A stretch of 20,108 bases of DNA from a virus: the IMG/VR virus record IMGVR_UViG_3300028024_000003; one strand, written 5' to 3'. Positions 2,387 through 15,494 of this stretch are shown one piece after another. A program made the position numbers and the translations under genes. Under the pieces are notes generated by a model that was not told the origin of the DNA, did no database searches, and worked only from the letters and a program-made list of their open reading frames with translations. Position 1 is the first letter of the stretch, and each line of letters opens with the position of its first letter.

Positions 2387-2412
2387 AATAAAGCCCACCT
2401 CGCGGGTGGGCT
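2387..2412 (-). terminator. Putative terminator after the dNMP kinase
   Basis: Stem AGCCCACC/GGTGGGCT followed by a short T-rich tract on the minus strand. Confidence 0.55.
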
Positions 2413-2424
2413 CGCGAAACTGAG

Positions 2425-3075
2425 TCAGTGGAAGGACCGGAGCACGGCGCGACGGAGGCGGTCGAGGCCAGCGGTACCCTCTTCATTCAGGAATTCCTCC
2501 CTGATGGGGTAATCCAGCATCGCGACTTCCGACGAGTGCAACAGCGCCTTGTCGTTCGAACCACCCAGGCCCGGGCGCACGACGCGGCGCAGCTCGCCAC
2601 CGAGTTCGTTCTCGACGAGATGCCCTTCGTCCGGAAAACGTACGTCGGTGATGACGAATTTCTTGCGCGGATTGGCGCGGACGAAATCCGCGACCTGCGC
2701 GCGCCAGTAATCGTCGCGGAAGGTCATGCGGCGATATTCCGTGCCCCAGTATTGGAGCACTTCGCGCGGGCTGCGCGGCTTGCGCAGGAACGCCGCAATC
2801 CTGCGACTATCCTGGCCGAGGCGCAGGCCCGCTTGCGTGAGCAGGACCGCCACGAACAGCTGGTCCTTGCAGTTCGCCAGCGCCAGCTCGGGCTGTGGCA
2901 GCTCTTTCGACTCGCGGCGCTGCAGGAACTCGACGGTTACACCGAACGCCTGCGCGACTTCGAGGTACAGCGCATCGGCAAACGCAATGCGCGTCCAGCC
3001 TTGTGCGACGAGAAACTGGGCGACGGTATCCTTTCCGGAGCCGCGAATGCCCACCAGACCAACTACTCTATGCAT
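2425..3075 (-). CDS. Phage-type deoxynucleoside monophosphate kinase
   Basis: P-loop GLVGIRGSGKDT plus FADAL, PREVLQYWGTE, VITDVRFPDE and HSSE motifs of T4 gp1-like dNMP kinases. Confidence 0.88.
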   Translation of the reverse strand: MHRVVGLVGIRGSGKDTVAQFLVAQGWTRIAFADALYLEVAQAFGVTVEFLQRRESKELPQPELALANCKDQLFVAVLLTQAGLRLGQDSRRIAAFLRKPRSPREVLQYWGTEYRRMTFRDDYWRAQVADFVRANPRKKFVITDVRFPDEGHLVENELGGELRRVVRPGLGGSNDKALLHSSEVAMLDYPIREEFLNEEGTAGLDRLRRAVLRSFH

Positions 3076-3086
3076 GATGGAATCCT

Positions 3087-3569
3087 TCAGATGGGGCGGC
3101 CACGAGTGCCGTTAAGTTCGTTCTTCGCCAACTTGATTTGCACGGCCTTCTCGAGGTCGATGCCGTACAGGTCGGCGATGTAGACAACGCGCGCGACAAG
3201 GCGGCCCATGCCTTCACCGAAGTCAGGGCCGAGCTGAGGTTTGCGTGCGGTATTGCTCCAGAGGGCGTATTCGACGAGCACTTCGCCCATACGCTCAGGA
3301 GCGGTGATGCCCCGCCATTCCGGCTGGGCATTGATGACTTGCAGCGTGAGGTCGACCTTCTCAGTGCAGGCAAGGTCGACACAGCGCAGGATAATGTCGG
3401 CGAGTTCTTCGCCGAATCGCGTCAGGTCGATGACGTCGTAGCATTCGTCGGTGGCTTCACCGATTTCGGAAGCAATGAGCGACAGGCTCTCGAGCACTGT
3501 CTTGTTATGCCAGCCCATGCGCTCTACCCACGCCCAATGTTTGTAGGCAATTGCGTCAAAATCAATCAC
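3087..3569 (-). CDS. MazG-like NTP pyrophosphohydrolase with a duplicated domain
   Basis: LIASEIGEATDE and EELADIILR metal-binding motifs, and C-terminal GIDLEKAVQIKLAKN. Start taken as GTG 3569 (uncertain); the longer ORF overlaps the upstream gene. Confidence 0.8.
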   Translation of the reverse strand: MIDFDAIAYKHWAWVERMGWHNKTVLESLSLIASEIGEATDECYDVIDLTRFGEELADIILRCVDLACTEKVDLTLQVINAQPEWRGITAPERMGEVLVEYALWSNTARKPQLGPDFGEGMGRLVARVVYIADLYGIDLEKAVQIKLAKNELNGTRGRPI

Positions 3570-4532: not shown

Positions 4533-6284
4533 TCAGAACAGACAGCCTTGCACCGCTTGCGGAGCGACCCACTCGCGGCCGTCAGCGCGCGCCGCCAGCA
4601 CTTCGCCGTGACACAGGTTGTGCACGTTGTCGCGGCTTTTACACCAGCAGCCTAGCGTCTTGCCCTTGAGCAGGTACACGTCGGCCAGCAGCTCCTGGTT
4701 GCCCAGCAGGTCTTCGGCGAAGTCAGCTACTGCCGTTTCGCGCGTACGATTGCTGTCGACCTTGTGCGGGTTGTGCCATTTGGAGTGCGGATAGTCCGAA
4801 CCCATCTGGCGCCCGATATAGACGTCGAACGGAGCCTCCTTCACGTGCACGACCCGGGTGACAGGTCCGCGGCCGGTCTTTGCCTTCACGTAGCCGTGAA
4901 TCAGGTTCCGGATGAACCGGGACCCATGGCCCTGACCTTCCCATGCCTGGAAGCGTTCCGACTTGGCCTGCGTGAAATGGCTGCATTTCTCCAGCCACGC
5001 CACACCGCCGTTCTTAGTCACGAGGTCATACAGCTTGGTGTTCTGAATAAACTTGAGCGCGATGATGTCAATCATCAGGCCGTCGTTGTACTCATCCTCA
5101 CCCGGAGCCTTCAGCGACTGATAGGCCGCTTCGGAATCCGGGTACGTCACACCATTGATTTTCACGGGATACGGGTGCTTGATGCCGCCCTTCTCCCGCG
5201 CACGCTCTGACATGTTCGTCAGCGCGCCACCAAGCCCCGGAGCACCGCTCCAGATATTGATGGCTGCTGCGACCTGCGGTGTTTCCGCCACCGTGAGCCA
5301 CGGCTTCCAGTCTTCCGGAAAGCTGCAGTTCGCCGGCGCCGCAGAAAACATCGGCGCTACCTCCTTGTCTTCGTAGCCGGCCAGACCGCAGCCGATACGG
5401 GTGACGAAGAAGTGTTCATCGGGATGTGCTTTCGCATACTCGATAAATTCGTCGACGAAAGGCTTGATGGCAGCCAGGGGAAGGGTCTGTTTCGGGTCAT
5501 TGAACGATGGACGCTCGATACCCGGAAGCGGCCGGCCATCCTTTGTGGGGATGCCGTAGCTTTGACCCTGACGCCCGGGACCCACGCCCGGTTTCGCGCC
5601 AAACTGCTCCCTGGCGACAGCTGCCGCGCCCTTGCCGTGACGACCAGCGAGGTTCGAGCCAAACACGAACACCTGATTTTCGAGTTCGGTCGGCAGCGAC
5701 CCGTCGTTATGGAAGTCCCAGCCCTTGCCCTTCATCAGCACAGCAGCCTCGCCCTCGAGCTCGGCACGAATCGCGGCGGCCGTAGCCGTCATTTCCGTGC
5801 CTTGCGCGTTGCGGCGACGAAACCGCGCCGGGTAGTGGCCCAGTGCAGGGACACCCAGGGCGATTGCCGCGACCAGGCCCGCCTGGTCGATGCCCGTCTG
5901 TCCGCCGGAGCGAATGAGCGTGAGCTTCACGGCTCGCAATACGACCGCGAGAACGCTGTGCACCCACGCATTCGCGCGCTCCTGGTTGACCCCGTGCTCG
6001 GCGAGCGTGTAGATGCCGTTTCCCGCCACGTTCAGCGTGCTGCCGTTACGCTCGACGATGAACGCGATGAGCCGAGCCGCTGCTTCGGATACGTCGATTC
6101 CGAAGGGAATACCGACGTAGCGAAACCCAGCCAGGCGCTTCGTGAGCTTCTCGCCTGCCGTGCCGAAGTCCGTGGCGAAGGCAACTGTAACGTCGGCTCC
6201 CATCGCGTTGTCCGTCGTGCGCGGCACATAGCTGTATTCCGCGTGCGCCTGAAGGCGCAGTTCTGCTGTTTTCATCTTCTGCAT
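4533..6284 (-). CDS. Multidomain protein: SLOG (YpsA/MoCo-carrier-like) + Macro-like (A1S_2505-type) + NADAR-like + DUF4326 (583 aa)
   Basis: RBS CAGGAG before ATG 6284. Motifs: Y.PRT..N, LNVAGN, SGGQTGIDQAGL; VFVFGSNLAGRHGKGAA, SYGIPT, FVTRIGCGLAG; LTN...PVKINGVTYPDSEAAYQSLK; VYIGR, KWHNP, LKGKTLGCWC, CHGEVL. Confidence 0.8.
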   Translation of the reverse strand: MQKMKTAELRLQAHAEYSYVPRTTDNAMGADVTVAFATDFGTAGEKLTKRLAGFRYVGIPFGIDVSEAAARLIAFIVERNGSTLNVAGNGIYTLAEHGVNQERANAWVHSVLAVVLRAVKLTLIRSGGQTGIDQAGLVAAIALGVPALGHYPARFRRRNAQGTEMTATAAAIRAELEGEAAVLMKGKGWDFHNDGSLPTELENQVFVFGSNLAGRHGKGAAAVAREQFGAKPGVGPGRQGQSYGIPTKDGRPLPGIERPSFNDPKQTLPLAAIKPFVDEFIEYAKAHPDEHFFVTRIGCGLAGYEDKEVAPMFSAAPANCSFPEDWKPWLTVAETPQVAAAINIWSGAPGLGGALTNMSERAREKGGIKHPYPVKINGVTYPDSEAAYQSLKAPGEDEYNDGLMIDIIALKFIQNTKLYDLVTKNGGVAWLEKCSHFTQAKSERFQAWEGQGHGSRFIRNLIHGYVKAKTGRGPVTRVVHVKEAPFDVYIGRQMGSDYPHSKWHNPHKVDSNRTRETAVADFAEDLLGNQELLADVYLLKGKTLGCWCKSRDNVHNLCHGEVLAARADGREWVAPQAVQGCLF

Positions 6285-6484
6285 GGATTGCTCCTGTACG
6301 TAGTTTTTCCTAAGTCTGTATAGGGCGATACGGTCTCCTCGGCGCCGTACAGGACCTTGCGCGCCCCGCATCCCGCCACATCACGCGAGAGCCTTGCTGG
6401 ACGGGCCTCGCGGCGACCTATACCGAATGTCGATTGACACACTCGGCTACGTGGCCATACATTTGAATAAGGAAAAACAGGAAA

Positions 6485-7730: not shown

Positions 7731-8228
7731 TTATTGTAGGCTGCCAGGCTTAAGTGCCGTGAAAGCAGTAGGCAGAAAAATCGCCAGGCCAGCCGCCAGT
7801 TTTTCTGAATCGTTCTGTACGGTTTCGTTCACAATGTCCACCAGAACATCGAAAGAAGCATGAAACAATTCCTTGCTACCGAGAGAGCGCCACTGTTCGC
7901 AGGCGCGATGCGCAAGCGCTTCCAGCCCGTGCGCGTCGTGCACTGCCCACGAGTGCGCCGCCACCCAGGGCGTCGCGACACCTGCACCGCTCAGTCCGCG
8001 CATGCGCGCCTCTACGGTCTTGCGCGTGCACCCGAGCTTGTACAGGCCGGGCCAGGACGCATTTGCCGCCAGATAGAGGTGCCCTGACTTGGCCTCGAGC
8101 CAGAGTGGCAAGCCTTCCGCCAGCGCATCACGCTCAAGGTCACCGACAGGGCCGTCTTCAAAATAAAGGGGTGTGCCGGAGCGCGCCAGCTGGATGGCGC
8201 GGGCTGCGGCCGCCATGGGTTCAAACAT
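7731..8228 (-). CDS. T5orf172/MUG113-type GIY-YIG domain protein
   Basis: GHLYLAAN..WPGLYKLGCT...EARMRGL..AGV.TPW, E..AH and ELF motifs; RBS AAGGAG. Confidence 0.82.
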   Translation of the reverse strand: MFEPMAAAARAIQLARSGTPLYFEDGPVGDLERDALAEGLPLWLEAKSGHLYLAANASWPGLYKLGCTRKTVEARMRGLSGAGVATPWVAAHSWAVHDAHGLEALAHRACEQWRSLGSKELFHASFDVLVDIVNETVQNDSEKLAAGLAIFLPTAFTALKPGSLQ

Positions 8229-9748: not shown

Positions 9749-10654
9749 ATGGGTTCAAGCAGCTGGAGTTCCACCGACTGGGATTCGTTTTCGTCGAACA
9801 CGCGCGCCAAGTCTACGGCGCAGGTGTTCAGCCAGAATTTCATGCACAAGGACCTGAATCCGCTCGGCGTCGCCATGCGCGAATCGCGCGATTCCGCGGT
9901 CAATCCTAATTCGACGGCCATCATCGTGGGCTCGGATGTCACCGGGTCGATGGGCTATCTCGCCGAAGCACTCGTACGCGAAGGCATGGGCGTCCTCGTC
10001 GAGGAACTGCTCGCGCGCAAGCCCGTGAGCGACCCGCACATCATGTGCATGGGCGTGGGTGACGCGTACAGCGACGACGCTCCCCTGCAGGTGACGCAGT
10101 TCGAAGCGGACATCCGTATCGCCACGCAGCTCGCGCAGATTTGGCTCGAGGGCAAGGGCGGCGGCAACGGCGGTGAAAGCTATCATCTTCCGTGGTACTT
10201 CGCCGCCCGCCACACGTCCATCGACTGCTTCGAGAAACGCAGGAAGAAAGGCTATATTTTCACCGTTGGTGACGAAAATCCCCACAAGGTGCTCCGGCGC
10301 GAACAGGTCAAGGCCATATTCGGCGACGACATCGAGCGTGACCTGACCTCCGAAGAGCTCCTGACGATGGCGAGCCGCAGCTACAACGTGTTTCACCTGC
10401 TCGTCGAAGAAAGCAACTCGTGCGACGCGTCGGTGAAGGCGAACTGGAAGGCGCTCCTCGGCGAACGCGCGTTGCCGCTTTCGGACCACAAGAAGATGGC
10501 GGAACTCATTGTGTCAACCATCCAGGTCATCGAAGGCACGAGCGTCGATGCAACGGTGAAATCGTGGTCGGGTAACACGGCGATGGTCGTCGCGCGCGGG
10601 CTCAACGGGCTGCAACCGGCGCGGGCCACAGGTTCCGGCCTGATGCGGTTTTAA
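9749..10654 (+). CDS. von Willebrand factor A (vWA) domain protein
   Basis: MIDAS-like IIVGSDVTGSMG, GVGD, GGGNGGESY and IFTVGDE motifs. Confidence 0.85.
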   Translation: MGSSSWSSTDWDSFSSNTRAKSTAQVFSQNFMHKDLNPLGVAMRESRDSAVNPNSTAIIVGSDVTGSMGYLAEALVREGMGVLVEELLARKPVSDPHIMCMGVGDAYSDDAPLQVTQFEADIRIATQLAQIWLEGKGGGNGGESYHLPWYFAARHTSIDCFEKRRKKGYIFTVGDENPHKVLRREQVKAIFGDDIERDLTSEELLTMASRSYNVFHLLVEESNSCDASVKANWKALLGERALPLSDHKKMAELIVSTIQVIEGTSVDATVKSWSGNTAMVVARGLNGLQPARATGSGLMRF

Positions 10655-10675: not shown

Positions 10676-10704
10676 TTGACGGCGGGCTGTCAGTCTGCTA
10701 TAGT
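10676..10704 (+). promoter_or_regulatory. sigma70 promoter of ncRNA copy 1
   Basis: TTGACG, 17-bp spacer, TATAGT, with an extended -10 TG. Confidence 0.82.
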
Positions 10705-10710
10705 GTCGTC

Positions 10711-10864
10711 TCAGTTGGTTGTTGAGCGAAAGTTTCAGCAACCGACCAGTTTTGCAGGCTATTGCGCGGCTTCCTTCTATTCAACACACATGGGAACTAG
10801 CGGCGCTGCTCTCCTGCTCTACAACGTGAAACGGGGTGCCCAAACGGGCATCCCGTTTTGCTTT
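10711..10864 (+). ncRNA. Structured ncRNA candidate, copy 1
   Basis: Own promoter, 5' hairpin 10714-10746 with a GAAA loop, conserved core 10754-10817 and terminator 10829-10864. Ends are estimated. Confidence 0.75.
10829..10864 (+). terminator. Intrinsic terminator of ncRNA copy 1
   Basis: AAACGGGGTGCCC-AAAC-GGGCATCCCGTTT followed by TGCTTT. Confidence 0.8.
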
Positions 10865-10899
10865 GTGTATCAGAAATCGCAGCTTCAGCCGCAAGCTGG

Positions 10900-10928
10900 T
10901 TGACGAAAACTGGTTAATAACGTATAAT
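10900..10928 (+). promoter_or_regulatory. Near-consensus sigma70 promoter of ncRNA copy 2 and the downstream gene
   Basis: TTGACG, 17-bp spacer, TATAAT. Confidence 0.88.
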
Positions 10929-10934
10929 GTTTTT

Positions 10935-11076
10935 CAATGTCGGTGTCGCCTAGATGCCAGACAGGTTTTGCAGGCTATTGAACCGCTTCCTTCTATTCAA
11001 TTCATATCGGAACTAGCGGTTCTGCTCTCCTGCTCCAGACGTAGCGCGGGGTGTTCGTCGTCCGACGACATTCCGC
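10935..11076 (+). ncRNA. Structured ncRNA candidate, copy 2 (possibly also the mRNA leader)
   Basis: Own promoter, 5' hairpin 10938-10963, core 10970-11033 and 3' hairpin 11046-11076 without a U-tract. Confidence 0.75.
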
Positions 11077-11131
11077 ATTGCTGTCCTGCGGGTAGCCCTG
11101 TTCACAAAAATACGCTATCTGGGGAATCACA

Positions 11132-13405
11132 ATGCTTACGCTGGCCGACGTCGCCTATCGGGTTAACTCCCGCGAATTCAACATCCTCGCAGCGATTCTT
11201 CGCAGCGGCAAGCTGGTCCTCCCCGCGCTTGACCCGATGTATGCCGCGCAGGCGGCCAAAGGGCGGACGGGGCCGAATCTGGAGAAAGCTCTTCACAGCG
11301 AGCTGACCCTCGAAGCCCTGGGCTTCGTCTACGGCCATGACGCCCTGGTGACCCTCTCGTGGACGCCTGACGCTGAACTCATTCGCGTTCACAGCAACCT
11401 GGTGTTGATGCTGACGCGTGCGCTGGGAGCGCACAACCTCTACCAGCCGATGTATCCCAATTTCCCTGAGCGGGTGCTCGCTGCGTCCGACGCAGAGCTG
11501 CTCATGAACGCCTGGCGCCACTATTCAGGCGACTGGCTGGGCGTACGCGTTCTGCCGAGCTACTCGGCCGCCAAGCGCCCGCCGCTCAAGATGCTGGAAA
11601 GCATGAAGCCGACCGCGCTCGCACTCGCCGCCCCGAAGGCGGTTGAAGACCAGCTGCTGCGCCTCATCAACGGCAATGCCTCGATGTCCGCCGCGAACAA
11701 GGCTGTGGTACTCGAATCGCTCTCGTGGTTCAACGAATTCCAGCCGGCTCGTCTGCTCGAGCTGCTCAAGGAGCAAGCAACCATCCCGCAGAAGGAACAT
11801 CGCGCGCTGGTAGGCGGCTGGCTGCTCAAAACCGTCCCGATTACCTTCGTCGCATCTGGGTTCGACCGTTTCTTCCAGACGCCGACCGACGTGTTGCGGC
11901 TCGCCGCGGCCGTGGGTGCGAAAGACCTGAAGACGGTCGACCTGACGCTTTCCGCGCCGCCGCGCTTCGGCAAGATTTCGCGCGGCCTGCGTCGACTGTT
12001 GCTGAACCAGCTGAATGCCCTGGCTGCCAGCTCCGTTCAAGCTGAGATGTTCCAGCGTCGCGAGCAGTGGGTGCGCTTGGGTGAAGCCCTGCACCCGGGC
12101 GAATACCAAAGCCGCTTCCCGCTCGCATACGACCGTTTCAAGGCGCTGCGCGATAACGACAAGCCGGTAGGCTGGGCGGGAATCGTGGAACAGCGCATCG
12201 CCACCCGCGATACGCTGGCCGCCATCGACCTGCTTATCCAGCGTCCGGGCGTGTTCGCTCGCAAGCTGCACGAAGTTGTGCGCAAGGCGACGGGCGTCAA
12301 CAAGGAAGCGGTACTCAAGGCGTTCGCTGGCGTGGCTGACAAGGTGTCCACGCCGGTGCTGGTGCAGCTGCGTCACCGCATGCTGGCGGACCAGCACGGA
12401 GTGCAGGCGTTCTCCCCGAAAGCGGGTGCGGGCCGCATGTGGGTGCCGCAAGGTGGTTCCCCGCGCCTGACGGAAAGCGCGACCGACTTCATCGTCAAGA
12501 CGGTGTCGGACGTGCTGGCGGCGCGCTTTGCAAAGCTGCCGACCATGGGCAAGGTTTACGTTGACCCGGCGCTGTCGGGATTCAGCGTGCCGTTCGCTCA
12601 GCGTACCGCGCAGAAGAGCCTGCTGACGGTAGGCCGCGGCTCGCGCATCGACCTCGGCAGTGAGTCCATCATGCGTGCGTTCCTGTGGTGGAATGAAAGC
12701 GGCGTGACGAAGGACGGCGAGCCGTACACCATCGGTCGTACCGACCTGGACCTGTCCTGCGCGGTGCTCGACGAGAGCTTCAACCACATCGAACATTGCA
12801 GCTTCACGAATCTGCGTGCGCAAGGCCTGACGCACAGTGGCGACATCACATCGGCGCCGCAAGGCGCATGCGAGTTCATCGACATCGACTTCAAGATGCT
12901 GCCGGAGGAAGCCGCGTACATCGCGCTCGTGGCGTACGCCTACACGAAGCAGAATTTCGCGGACATGCCGGAAGCGTATCTCGGCTGGATGTCGCGCACC
13001 GACGGCCAGAGCGGCGCCATCTATGACGCACGCACCGTGCGCCAGAAGGTGGACCTGACCACATCCGGCGAGCGTGTGCTGGTCGGCTATGTCGACGTGG
13101 CGCGCCGTCAGTTCGTATGGGCGGACCTCGTGCTGCCGGCACGTTGCTCCGGCTTCAACGCGGTGGAAACGTCGACCGACATGATGAGCAAGCTGGCGCG
13201 CGGCATCGTGACGCCGATTCGGCCGACGCTGGGCGCGCTGCTGGAAGACCACGCCAAGGCGCGCGGTGAGCTGGTTGCGACCCCGGAAGATGCTGACATC
13301 GTGTTCACGGGCCGGCTTCCGACCGCGGTGACGCCGGCGAAGGATGGCCAGAAAGTGGTCACCGCCTATGACGCAGAAGTGCTCATCGCCGACTACCTCG
13401 CATAA
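11132..13405 (+). CDS. Large helical-domain protein with a C-terminal TerD-like domain (757 aa)
   Basis: TerD-like motifs DLDLSC and HSGDITSAP.GACEFIDID. N-terminal motifs PMYPNFP, TPTDVLRL, W.RLGE.LHPGEY and RPGVFARKL match an uncharacterised TerD-fused family as I recall it. Confidence 0.82.
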   Translation: MLTLADVAYRVNSREFNILAAILRSGKLVLPALDPMYAAQAAKGRTGPNLEKALHSELTLEALGFVYGHDALVTLSWTPDAELIRVHSNLVLMLTRALGAHNLYQPMYPNFPERVLAASDAELLMNAWRHYSGDWLGVRVLPSYSAAKRPPLKMLESMKPTALALAAPKAVEDQLLRLINGNASMSAANKAVVLESLSWFNEFQPARLLELLKEQATIPQKEHRALVGGWLLKTVPITFVASGFDRFFQTPTDVLRLAAAVGAKDLKTVDLTLSAPPRFGKISRGLRRLLLNQLNALAASSVQAEMFQRREQWVRLGEALHPGEYQSRFPLAYDRFKALRDNDKPVGWAGIVEQRIATRDTLAAIDLLIQRPGVFARKLHEVVRKATGVNKEAVLKAFAGVADKVSTPVLVQLRHRMLADQHGVQAFSPKAGAGRMWVPQGGSPRLTESATDFIVKTVSDVLAARFAKLPTMGKVYVDPALSGFSVPFAQRTAQKSLLTVGRGSRIDLGSESIMRAFLWWNESGVTKDGEPYTIGRTDLDLSCAVLDESFNHIEHCSFTNLRAQGLTHSGDITSAPQGACEFIDIDFKMLPEEAAYIALVAYAYTKQNFADMPEAYLGWMSRTDGQSGAIYDARTVRQKVDLTTSGERVLVGYVDVARRQFVWADLVLPARCSGFNAVETSTDMMSKLARGIVTPIRPTLGALLEDHAKARGELVATPEDADIVFTGRLPTAVTPAKDGQKVVTAYDAEVLIADYLA

Positions 13406-13422
13406 AACCAGGGATATTTGCT

Positions 13423-13893
13423 GTGACAACTATTTACGTCGGCCCCTACTTGGTCGTGCCCGCAGTGAAGCTGAAACGCGTCGCTCACGAGCGGGTCTGT
13501 TCCAACAATTGTGATGCGCCAGCCATCAATGCGCCCGCGAAGTTCTGCGGGAACTGCGGCGGCGCTGTCGTCGACAAGGACGTACCCGTCGAAGAAGTGA
13601 AGCCGTTGCCCATCCATGCGCTTGACCAGCGGTGGACGGACGTCATGGCTTGCCCCGAGTATGGCCAGCGACACCCGAAAGGCAGCATCTGGCTGCCGAA
13701 CCGCGGTAATCACGGGATGCGCTTTGACCGAGGTTCAGAGGACGTGTATACCCCCATTCAGCTTTCCGCCATCAAAGCAGACGCAATGCTTTTGAAGGCA
13801 GAAACAGCGCATGCCGCGTTCGTGGAAATGCTGAAGAAGGACTTTGGCGCCAAGCCGTTCTGGGAAGTCGGCATCATCGCCTACTCATCGTAA
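13423..13893 (+). CDS. Hypothetical protein with a putative zinc ribbon
   Basis: CSNNC...FCGNCG; GTG start 17 nt after the upstream stop. Confidence 0.72.
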   Translation: MTTIYVGPYLVVPAVKLKRVAHERVCSNNCDAPAINAPAKFCGNCGGAVVDKDVPVEEVKPLPIHALDQRWTDVMACPEYGQRHPKGSIWLPNRGNHGMRFDRGSEDVYTPIQLSAIKADAMLLKAETAHAAFVEMLKKDFGAKPFWEVGIIAYSS

Positions 13894-13924: not shown

Positions 13925-14251
13925 ATGGACATGAATGCACAAGATGTCGACGGCACGCGCGATGCTGAAGAATGGAAGCCTTGGGCGGAGAAGCTCCTTC
14001 GCACGGTAAAGGGCGCACTGGAAAACGGCATTCCGCCGGCCTACAACGACTATCCGACGCCGGCAGAAGGATTCTGCTTCGAGCTGCACGCAGACCTGCC
14101 CTACGGCCGACCGTCCTTGCTCGCGCAAGTGAATGCGAACCTGGTGGAAATGCCGGAGTTCAAGGAACTGGACGCGCTGTTCGAACAGAAGTTCGGCTGC
14201 CCGATTCTGGGGCGCCGGCCCGGCGCGCACGCGCCTGCACAACAAGCCTGA
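13925..14251 (+). CDS. Hypothetical protein (108 aa)
   Basis: RBS GGAG and operon-like spacing. Confidence 0.68.
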   Translation: MDMNAQDVDGTRDAEEWKPWAEKLLRTVKGALENGIPPAYNDYPTPAEGFCFELHADLPYGRPSLLAQVNANLVEMPEFKELDALFEQKFGCPILGRRPGAHAPAQQA

Positions 14252-14261
14252 AGGAGCGAGC

Positions 14262-15494
14262 ATGCGCACGGCAAAGGTGGTGATTGGCGCGAACTATGGC
14301 GACGAAGGCAAAGGTCTCATGACCGACTACTTCGCGGCGCAGAGCGACAACAGCCTCGTGGTGCGGTTCAACGGCGGATGCCAGGCGAGCCATACGGTCA
14401 CGACGCCCGACGGCCGCCGCCACGCATTCAGCCACTTTGGTGCGGGCACGTTCACGGGAGCCCGGACGTATCTGTCGCGCCACTTCGCAGTCAATCCGAC
14501 GCTCTATGCAAAAGAACGCGCGAAGCTCCTGCCGCTCATTGGCCGGCTGCCGACTATTTACGTGGACACGCGCGCGCCAGTGACGACGTTCTTCGATATG
14601 CTGGTCAACCAGATGGTGGAGGATTTCCGCGGCGATAAGCGGCATGGCAGCTGCGGCATGGGCTTCGGCGAGACCATCGGGCGCCAGGAAGGCGAGATGT
14701 TCGCGCTGACCGTAGGTGACCTGCTCGACGTCACCGCGCTGCGCGCGAAGCTCCTGCAGATTCGCGACAGTCACCTGCCCGCCCGTTGCAAGGAACTGGG
14801 ACTGCCGGATTTCGGCAAGCATCACGAGCTGTGCACGACGGACGTGCTCGTGGACGCGTTCATCGTCGCCGCACAGGAATTCCTCGGCGATGTCACGCTG
14901 GTTTCGGAAGCCGAAGAACCCATCATTCTCGCGAAGAATGTGGTGTTTGAAGGCGCGCAAGGCCTGCTGCTCGACCAGCATCACGGCGCGTTTCCGTATG
15001 TGACCCGCTCAAACACCGGGTTGCGTAACGCGCTCGACGTCGCGAGCGAAGCCGGCATAACGAAGCTAGATGTGAACTACGTCACGCGCGCGTACATGAC
15101 GCGGCATGGTGCAGGCCCGCTCGCTCACGAACTGCCGGGTCGTCCGTACGAAGGTGTGGTTGACCTCACAAACCAACCGAACGAGTATCAGGGCACGCTG
15201 CGCTTCGCTGACTTGGACCTCGACCAGGTTGCACTGGCCATCGGCACGGACCTGGCCGACGTGTTCGGCACGCACGTCCACATCAATGCGCATCTGGCTA
15301 TCACATGTCTCGACCAGATTGGCGGGGACGTACCGGCGCGCGTTCGACTAGAAAACACGCTTCACCGCGTGAGGACAGACGAACTCATCGCCATGGCCAG
15401 CAGCCGTATCCTGCCTGTGGCGTTCTGCTCTTGGGGACCGACGCGCGATACGGTGCGTGCGCGACAAATCACGCGCATGACATGCGCCGCATGA
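14262..15494 (+). CDS. Divergent adenylosuccinate synthetase (PurA)-like protein (410 aa)
   Basis: GANYGDEGKG, RFNGG.QASHTV, FEGAQGLLLD, PYVTRSNT, YMTRHGAGP, TCLD and SWGP motifs; RBS AAGGAG before ATG 14262. Confidence 0.9.
   Translation: MRTAKVVIGANYGDEGKGLMTDYFAAQSDNSLVVRFNGGCQASHTVTTPDGRRHAFSHFGAGTFTGARTYLSRHFAVNPTLYAKERAKLLPLIGRLPTIYVDTRAPVTTFFDMLVNQMVEDFRGDKRHGSCGMGFGETIGRQEGEMFALTVGDLLDVTALRAKLLQIRDSHLPARCKELGLPDFGKHHELCTTDVLVDAFIVAAQEFLGDVTLVSEAEEPIILAKNVVFEGAQGLLLDQHHGAFPYVTRSNTGLRNALDVASEAGITKLDVNYVTRAYMTRHGAGPLAHELPGRPYEGVVDLTNQPNEYQGTLRFADLDLDQVALAIGTDLADVFGTHVHINAHLAITCLDQIGGDVPARVRLENTLHRVRTDELIAMASSRILPVAFCSWGPTRDTVRARQITRMTCAA

Follow-up and report, generated by a model that had tools for sequence, protein, structure and literature searches.

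Two tandem structured RNAs of a widespread family adjoin a viral TerD-fusion gene and are probable partners of its Ro60-like protein

Why should a gap between two viral genes carry the same elaborate layout twice, and what would the products do? The question is raised by a stretch of viral DNA of 20,108 nucleotides (nt) (IMG/VR record IMGVR_UViG_3300028024_000003), hereafter the window. Within it a 477-nt gap separates the end of a gene for a 301-amino-acid (aa) protein (position 10654) from the start of a gene for a 757-aa TerD-fusion protein (11132). An initial annotation, made from the sequence alone, had proposed that this gap encodes two tandem, separately promoted RNAs, whose structure is under selection and whose invariant unpaired bases bind a protein. 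Here we show that both elements belong to a widespread structured RNA family absent from Rfam, and that this family is exclusively associated with the gene family of the TerD-fusion protein. Comparison of a predicted protein structure with known ones suggests that the RNAs are probably dedicated partners of that protein, in a ribonucleoprotein (RNP) resembling that of Ro60 and Y RNAs.

The two RNA units and their family

Each copy of the layout consists, in order, of a sigma-70-like promoter, a 5′ hairpin, the sequence GUUUU, a 64-nt core and a 3′ hairpin starting CGGGGUG. The tandem units of the same build that had been described initially were borne out in this layout. A consensus promoter scan returned two sites against 0.3 expected from shuffles. 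The first (TTGACG-17-TATAGT, TG-extended; 10676..10704, + strand) matches the consensus at 10/12 positions and its hexamer position is conserved in relatives, and the second (TTGACG-17-TATAAT; 10900..10928, +) matches at 11/12. The first promoter precedes RNA copy 1, of ~155 nt (10711..10866, +), with a 5′ hairpin at 10714-10746, the core at 10753-10816 and a terminator hairpin at 10826-10861 followed by a U-tract. The second precedes RNA copy 2, of ~145 nt (10935..11080, +), with a 5′ hairpin at 10938-10963, the core at 10970-11033 and a 3′ hairpin with a weak U tail at 11046-11076; the outer ends of both RNAs are predicted ones. A terminator scan scored the end of copy 1, a 16-base-pair (bp) hairpin and T-tract, as an intrinsic terminator, and the U tail of the copy 2 hairpin is the weaker of the two. 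Between copy 2 and the 757-aa gene lies a linker of 51 nt (11081..11131, +) that holds the tail CCUGCGGGUAGCCCUG and a ribosome-binding site, GGGGAA (11121-11126), and in which the promoter scan found no separate promoter.

Against dinucleotide shuffles the fold of copy 1 gave z = -6.1 and that of copy 2 z = -3.5, and the reverse strand folds worse. The 5′ hairpin sequences of the two copies are unrelated, and the cores are identical at 55/64 positions. Among the nine differences, two neighbouring pairs change from C-G/G-C in copy 1 to A-U/A-U in copy 2, as had been noted. The 7-bp stem that was also described is present, but in copy 1 it holds a G-G mismatch; across the family, this position accepts non-standard pairs. 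Two open frames, at 10836-11306 (+; 156 aa) and 11102-11521 (-; 139 aa), overlap copy 2 and the start of the TerD-fusion gene; these are probably not genes, and could hide the RNA in automatic annotation.

Homologues of the 757-aa protein at 54-95% identity occur in Burkholderia, Paraburkholderia and soil metagenomes, and a Burkholderiales clade set of 12 loci (L081-L084, L290-L297) was used for close comparison. A covariance model built from five clade sequences (R1) scored 159.8 bits on copy 1 and 124.3 bits on copy 2, and a model of the core (R2) gave 65 bits (E 5e-16, at 10751-10820) and 66.5 bits (at 10967-11036), respectively. We ran R1 over 80 genomic loci of bacteria that encode distant homologues, 33-39% identical to the window's protein. 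Every significant match lay on the coding strand and adjoined the gene. The loci come from Priestia, Bacillus, Paenibacillus, Brevibacillus, Planctomycetota, Saccharibacteria, Sericytochromatia, Bacteroidota, Verrucomicrobiota, Myxococcota and others.

Aligning 81 distinct cores with MAFFT, blind to structure (A6), yielded one consensus. It runs from P1, a stem of 5-8 bp that always ends in GG/CC, through CUAU, a second stem P2 of 8-9 bp, an invariant CUUCCUUCU, a variable loop, UAG and the return strand of P2 to GCUUU and the return strand of P1. The blocks GGCUAU, CUUCCUUCU, UAG and GCUUUCC are the invariant unpaired parts of the core, and the unpaired blocks called invariant at the outset are so across phyla. 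The variable loop measures 10-26 nt in bacteria and is longer in phages. In this alignment 90.5% of P1 and P2 cells are paired against 42-51% in slid controls, double-sided changes occupy 387 cells against 47-103, and the covariation score is 0.685 against 0.12-0.16. Fourteen of the 17 pairs changed on both sides, and the observed values were reached by none of 500 shuffles. The structure is thus conserved, and the selection proposed from two local copies is supported far beyond them. The inner UUCC/GGAA helix described at the outset does exist in both copies, but it was rejected as a family feature: across the 81 cores it is paired in 55.9% of cells and shows no covariation, and it is local at best.

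Rfam 15 gave no match in the window at the gathering score. A search of the core at E up to 10 was likewise negative, and the hairpins gave chance-level matches only. Four related loci yielded transfer RNA (tRNA) and cobalamin matches, and none for the RNA family. Together with ARAGORN, which found no tRNA-like gene in the window, these searches agree with the initial view that the elements are not tRNA, CRISPR, Y RNA or a known riboswitch. Searching phage and plasmid collections with the intergenic region by BLASTN returned no match. A loose DNA pattern scan of viral contigs was also tried; it returned mostly chance matches and covariance models were used instead. Literature searches on TerD in connection with RNA motifs, riboswitches, TROVE or Y RNAs, and on the motif sequences themselves, turned up no account of this RNA-protein pair. 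The RNA family, apparently undescribed, is linked to a single family of uncharacterised proteins. Its members occur in Firmicutes, Proteobacteria, Planctomycetes, Bacteroidota, Cyanobacteria-related lineages, Saccharibacteria and many large phages, and structured RNAs of such breadth and covariation are seldom found outside Rfam.

Association with one gene and the fold of its protein

With R2, the RNA was found beside the TerD-fusion gene and on the same strand in 74/80 bacterial loci, two of the six negatives being truncated contigs. In viral contigs it was found in 76/80 loci, where all 248 matches lie on the strand of the gene and the units cluster right before and/or right after it, with up to seven or more per locus. 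A covarying motif accompanies homologues of the 757-aa protein in bacterial and phage loci alike. A simple regular expression for the motif matched the plus strand 201 times and the minus strand 0 times in viral loci (113 and 1, respectively, in genome loci). Five complete genomes of 5.4-8.4 Mb were also searched with R2, and every match, in four of them, fell at the TerD-fusion locus; the fifth, in which the gene is present, gave no R2 match. Among 61 genomes of one family, 28 were RNA-positive and 27 protein-positive, the latter all contained in the former, and 33 had neither; each protein match listed adjoins an RNA match on the same contig. No other neighbour gene is conserved beside the TerD-fusion gene across the family. 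Moreover, the RNA does not lie beside true TROVE/Ro60 genes, which are present elsewhere in two of the same genomes. This exclusive association with one protein family strongly backs the reading of the conserved unpaired bases as a protein-binding site, which we infer.

The TerD-fusion protein (11132..13405, +) has homologues in many phyla. Its match to Pfam TerD (PF02342; E 1e-4, 22.3 bits) falls just under the cut-off of 25.3, and 9/23 relatives match the same profile, the best at E 6.6e-9. An AlphaFold2 model (predicted local distance difference test, pLDDT, 82) predicts a helical region (residues 14-467), then a beta-sandwich (505-667) and, at the C terminus, a small alpha/beta part. Within the helical region, the model suggests an N-terminal extension of ~170 residues followed by a Ro60-like part at about 170-467. 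The predicted beta-sandwich (about 505-690) aligned with TerD structures at Z 11.5-15.9 and with Foldseek E-values of 4.5e-6 to 8e-4; on this model, a TerD beta-sandwich is present in the protein.

The remainder of the chain pointed elsewhere. In an exhaustive structural comparison with 48,161 PDB representatives, four chains matched the whole model at Z of at least 8, namely two TerD and two Ro60 proteins. The Ro60 proteins are that of Thermus phage phiLo (9l5y; Z 10.1, 328 residues aligned, root-mean-square deviation (rmsd) 3.8) and Deinococcus Rsr (2nvo; Z 9.5, 340 residues aligned, rmsd 4.1), and both alignments set model residues 170-757 against nearly the whole Ro60 chain. When the N-terminal 500 residues were folded alone the same two chains were recovered at Z 10.4 and 10.0, the next best match reaching 7.6 over ~100 residues. 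Over both models the Ro60 alignments cover 247-340 residues. We describe the protein as Ro60-like in its predicted architecture, with a TerD insertion, rather than as a TROVE member. A profile of the family found no match among PDB sequences, and the protein atlas returned only sibling "TerD family" clusters.

From these lines of evidence we consider it probable, with a fair margin for error, that the two RNAs are dedicated partners of the adjacent protein. The non-coding RNAs would bind the 757-aa protein, and the resulting RNP would act as Ro60 does together with Y RNAs. The protein would grip a handle in which the stems P1 and P2, with the CUAU/GCUUU internal loop between them, are joined to the invariant CUUCCUUCU...UAG loop bases, and the lineage-specific 5′ hairpin, variable loop and 3′ hairpin may contribute stability or other contacts. 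The cellular role of the RNP would likely be RNA handling or quality control, in phages often from within tRNA gene arrays.

Y RNA genes adjoin known Ro60 genes, including two upstream of the phage phiLo Ro60 gene (PMC4201824, PMC12135203). The likeness to these systems (YrlA/YrlB, Yrn1; phiLo Yrl1/Yrl2; PMC4201824, PMC12135203) extends to structured RNAs that lie beside the protein gene on the same strand, often in at least two copies, in both bacteria and phages. It includes a stem with a conserved internal loop as the likely protein handle, joined to variable modules, and a protein for which Ro60 chains are the sole non-TerD matches at Z of at least 8. There are also clear differences. In Ro60 (TROVE and vWA), a vWA domain caps a HEAT-like ring of helices. 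The TerD-fusion protein lacks a TROVE sequence signal, carries the TerD insert and the N-terminal extension, and has no evident DxSxS MIDAS motif, VYVDPAL following the first strand of its C-terminal domain. The RNA differs from Y RNAs in its own invariant blocks, in having no tRNA-like domain in the window and in matching no Rfam model (RF02553 and related). It shares with Y RNAs a gene beside that of the partner protein, a partner that is here Ro60-like by predicted fold only.

Several further observations weigh against a Ro60-type RNP. The Ro60 Z scores of ~10 are below ~13, the level at which helical-repeat matches become safe, and alignment of the ring alone gave an rmsd of 6.9-8.5 Å. The TROVE profile (PF05731) found no match in 23 family members at E up to 5, and hhalign of the family profile against the TROVE alignment returned a probability of 0.2%. 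The Ro60-binding motif of Y RNAs is GNCGAAN0-1G (CGAA), in a stem or bulge (PMC4201824, PMC12135203). As a family feature GNCGAA was rejected, being found in 12/81 cores and in neither window copy (GGGAAC in copy 1, UCGGAAC in copy 2). No tRNA-like module was found in the window copies by Rfam or ARAGORN. Finally, the single RNA of the Burkholderiales loci always ends ~50 nt before the start codon with no promoter between, an arrangement that fits a messenger RNA (mRNA) leader equally well.

A more novel reading would make the RNP a class of its own and not a diverged Ro60/Y RNA. Here, a ring-like helical protein would be joined to a calcium- or ligand-sensing TerD domain, and the CUUCCUUCU loop would pair with purine-rich cellular or phage RNA. 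We hold this only as a speculative option; if true, bacteria and large phages would possess a sequence-directed, signal-gated RNA-handling device. Classical TerD proteins are not known to have an RNA partner. Those of the tellurite-resistance/Ter stress systems (PF02342; 2kxt, 3ibz) share the TerD-type beta-sandwich, but in the present family the domain is embedded in a helical protein of 757 aa, and TerB, TerC, TelA and TerY are not conserved neighbours.

A Ro60-like partner for these RNAs would give a first functional handle on the widespread "TerD family / cytoplasmic protein", and would point to a hitherto unrecognised sister system of Ro60-type RNA surveillance, which phages carry within their tRNA clusters. 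The pair is compact, with one gene and one RNA of ~70-150 nt, and occurs in tractable hosts (Priestia megaterium, Brevibacillus, Paenibacillus, Burkholderia), in which the hypothesis is directly testable.

Leader, inhibitor or free-standing RNA

Most copies of the RNA are found on the coding strand, 5-250 nt ahead of the start codon. The core is conserved, the part downstream of it varies, and the Brevibacillus core stops 12-13 nt short of the ATG. These features suit a cis-acting leader of the TerD-fusion mRNA, either a riboswitch aptamer or an autoregulatory protein-binding site, in which the 3′ hairpin would be a terminator-type expression platform and copy 1 a duplication by-product providing a second gate or promoter. 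The close clade offers further points in its favour: no promoter other than that of the RNA is detectable for the gene, and a terminator-like hairpin stands between the core and the ribosome-binding site. In the nearest relatives, moreover, UAGCCUG near the ribosome-binding site offers CAGGCUA an alternative pairing partner.

However, 12/80 bacterial loci have the RNA downstream of the gene, no more than 40 nt past the stop codon, and in three of these (L027, L062 and L072) the next gene is convergent. Phage arrays are found on both sides of the gene, with several units downstream of it, and often sit among tRNA clusters on the same strand. Copy 1 has its own promoter and a strong terminator with no gene before it to regulate, and still its fold is kept through compensatory changes. 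On the basis of these downstream loci, the arrays on both sides and the stand-alone copy 1, the RNA is not merely a leader, nor is it confined to the 5′ untranslated region as a riboswitch always would be. The alternative pairing is also gone in L296, L297 and L204, and a protein-binding leader would still mean an RNA-protein pair. We therefore regard a purely cis-acting leader function as an unlikely account of the family. For copy 2 itself, a comparison with its relatives, in which the gene has no other visible promoter, makes it very likely that the RNA also serves as an mRNA leader.

That comparison is provided by the clade set, in which each locus searched holds one RNA of the same build, and by the nearest relative (L203; protein 94% identical), in which both RNA copies are present. 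In an alignment of 13 sequences from promoter to start codon, the -35 and -10 hexamers are fixed in position and the spacer varies, which supports the separate promotion that had been proposed. The pairing of the 5′ and 3′ hairpins is kept despite sequence changes, and the core is nearly invariant. The promoter of copy 2 aligns with the single promoter of L081-L083 and L290-L297, and copy 2 is the orthologue of the relatives' single copy because they have a common tail after the hairpin, CCUGCGGG-N-AGCCUG. Copy 1 is the added unit. A tandem duplication of the whole unit, promoter and RNA, has given rise to the two RNA genes of the window. Copy 1 would be a stand-alone RNA stopped by its strong terminator. 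Since the hairpin of copy 2 is weaker and no further promoter follows, read-through into the gene is probable and would also supply the protein's mRNA.

In the window (11077-11131) and in L081-L083, L290 and L293, the tail after the gene-proximal 3′ hairpin repeats the core's GCUUUCCUGC and then carries UAGCCUG, which could pair with CAGGCUA in the 5′ strand of the core. The alternative helix that this would form close to the ribosome-binding site is restricted to these nearest relatives, and was rejected as a clade feature owing to its loss in the more distant members. The two copies are not always tandem. In Brevibacillus (L020-L024, L032, L038) a second RNA copy lies ~1.85 kb upstream of the gene-proximal copy, from which it is separated by two minus-strand genes.

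The order of promoter, RNA unit or units, leaky terminator and protein gene also recalls type III toxin-antitoxin systems (ToxIN-like). By analogy, the RNA units could be antitoxin-like inhibitors that restrain a harmful TerD-fusion effector until phage infection or stress. The multi-unit arrays of phages would agree with this, as would the mobile, stand-alone character of the two-part unit, which has no conserved neighbours and is often carried on prophages and phages. However, the units here are not near-identical short repeats; they are ~150 nt long and diverged, each has a promoter of its own, and their flanks differ. At four times the size of the toxins of those systems, the protein has no endoribonuclease signature, and neither Pfam nor PADLOC recognised a nuclease or toxin domain in it. 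In four genomes (G020, G011, G041 and G058) the TerD-fusion gene is broken or truncated, by five stops, by a split in two or to a 139-aa remnant, and the RNA is still adjacent, which misfits addiction by a stable toxin. An inhibitor role seems to us highly improbable.

The phage arrays bear on a further possibility, that the handle offers one of its loops, the variable or the invariant pyrimidine one, to another nucleic acid, as a guide, a decoy or a tRNA-related mimic for the protein. In the consensus the CUUCCUUCU loop is unpaired, which would leave it free to base-pair with a purine-rich sequence. The range of variable loop lengths is wide and extends further in phages, and phage copies are interspersed with tRNA genes of the same strand. 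Six viral loci (L242, L249, L255, L259, L262 and L266) carry the gene and RNA arrays within such tRNA clusters, and in L242 five tRNAs lead straight into the first RNA unit. However, the variable loops of the Burkholderiales clade and of Paenibacillus are semi-conserved and not hypervariable, no target was identified, and the window copies have no detected tRNA-like fold. We consider a guide or decoy highly improbable, and continue to favour an RNA that is the partner of the Ro60-like protein.

Neighbouring genes and a true Ro60 locus

The window is phage-like, in that most neighbour genes match PHROG families. The gene upstream of the RNAs had been called vWA, a label that found no support: the 301-aa protein has no vWA match in Pfam or PDB sequence searches. 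PADLOC returned no match for the TerD-fusion protein or the flanking genes, with the exception of a T5orf172/MUG113-domain protein (7731-8228, -) that matched the candidate defence family PDC-S57 (E 1.4e-14), and whose gene is divergent and stands before the operon leading to the RNAs. Further upstream, a 612-aa fusion protein (4533-6371, -) combines a circularly permuted YpsA-type SLOG domain with DUF4326 and two PHROG families of unassigned function, and is conserved in L081 and L083.

Downstream, the third gene after the TerD-fusion gene (14133-15494, +) encodes a 453-aa adenylosuccinate-synthetase homologue (Pfam E 1e-42) of the phage PurZ type (phrog_1211). This gene order, with the homologue downstream of the TerD-fusion gene, is conserved in most clade loci, and MazG-like and dNMP-kinase genes are found nearby in relatives, which hints at a pathway for modified-purine DNA.

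Lastly, ahead of the true Ro60 gene of one genome (L206/L208, ~2400-3390, -), the same strand carries four to five matches of 71 nt to the tRNA model, which may represent an array of tRNA-like Y RNAs. Directly after the TerD-fusion gene of the window (13423-13893, +) lies a gene for a protein of ~156 aa with weak zinc-ribbon hints. Its counterparts measure 153-159 aa in many clade loci and it is not conserved outside the clade, and it may be a lineage-specific accessory.
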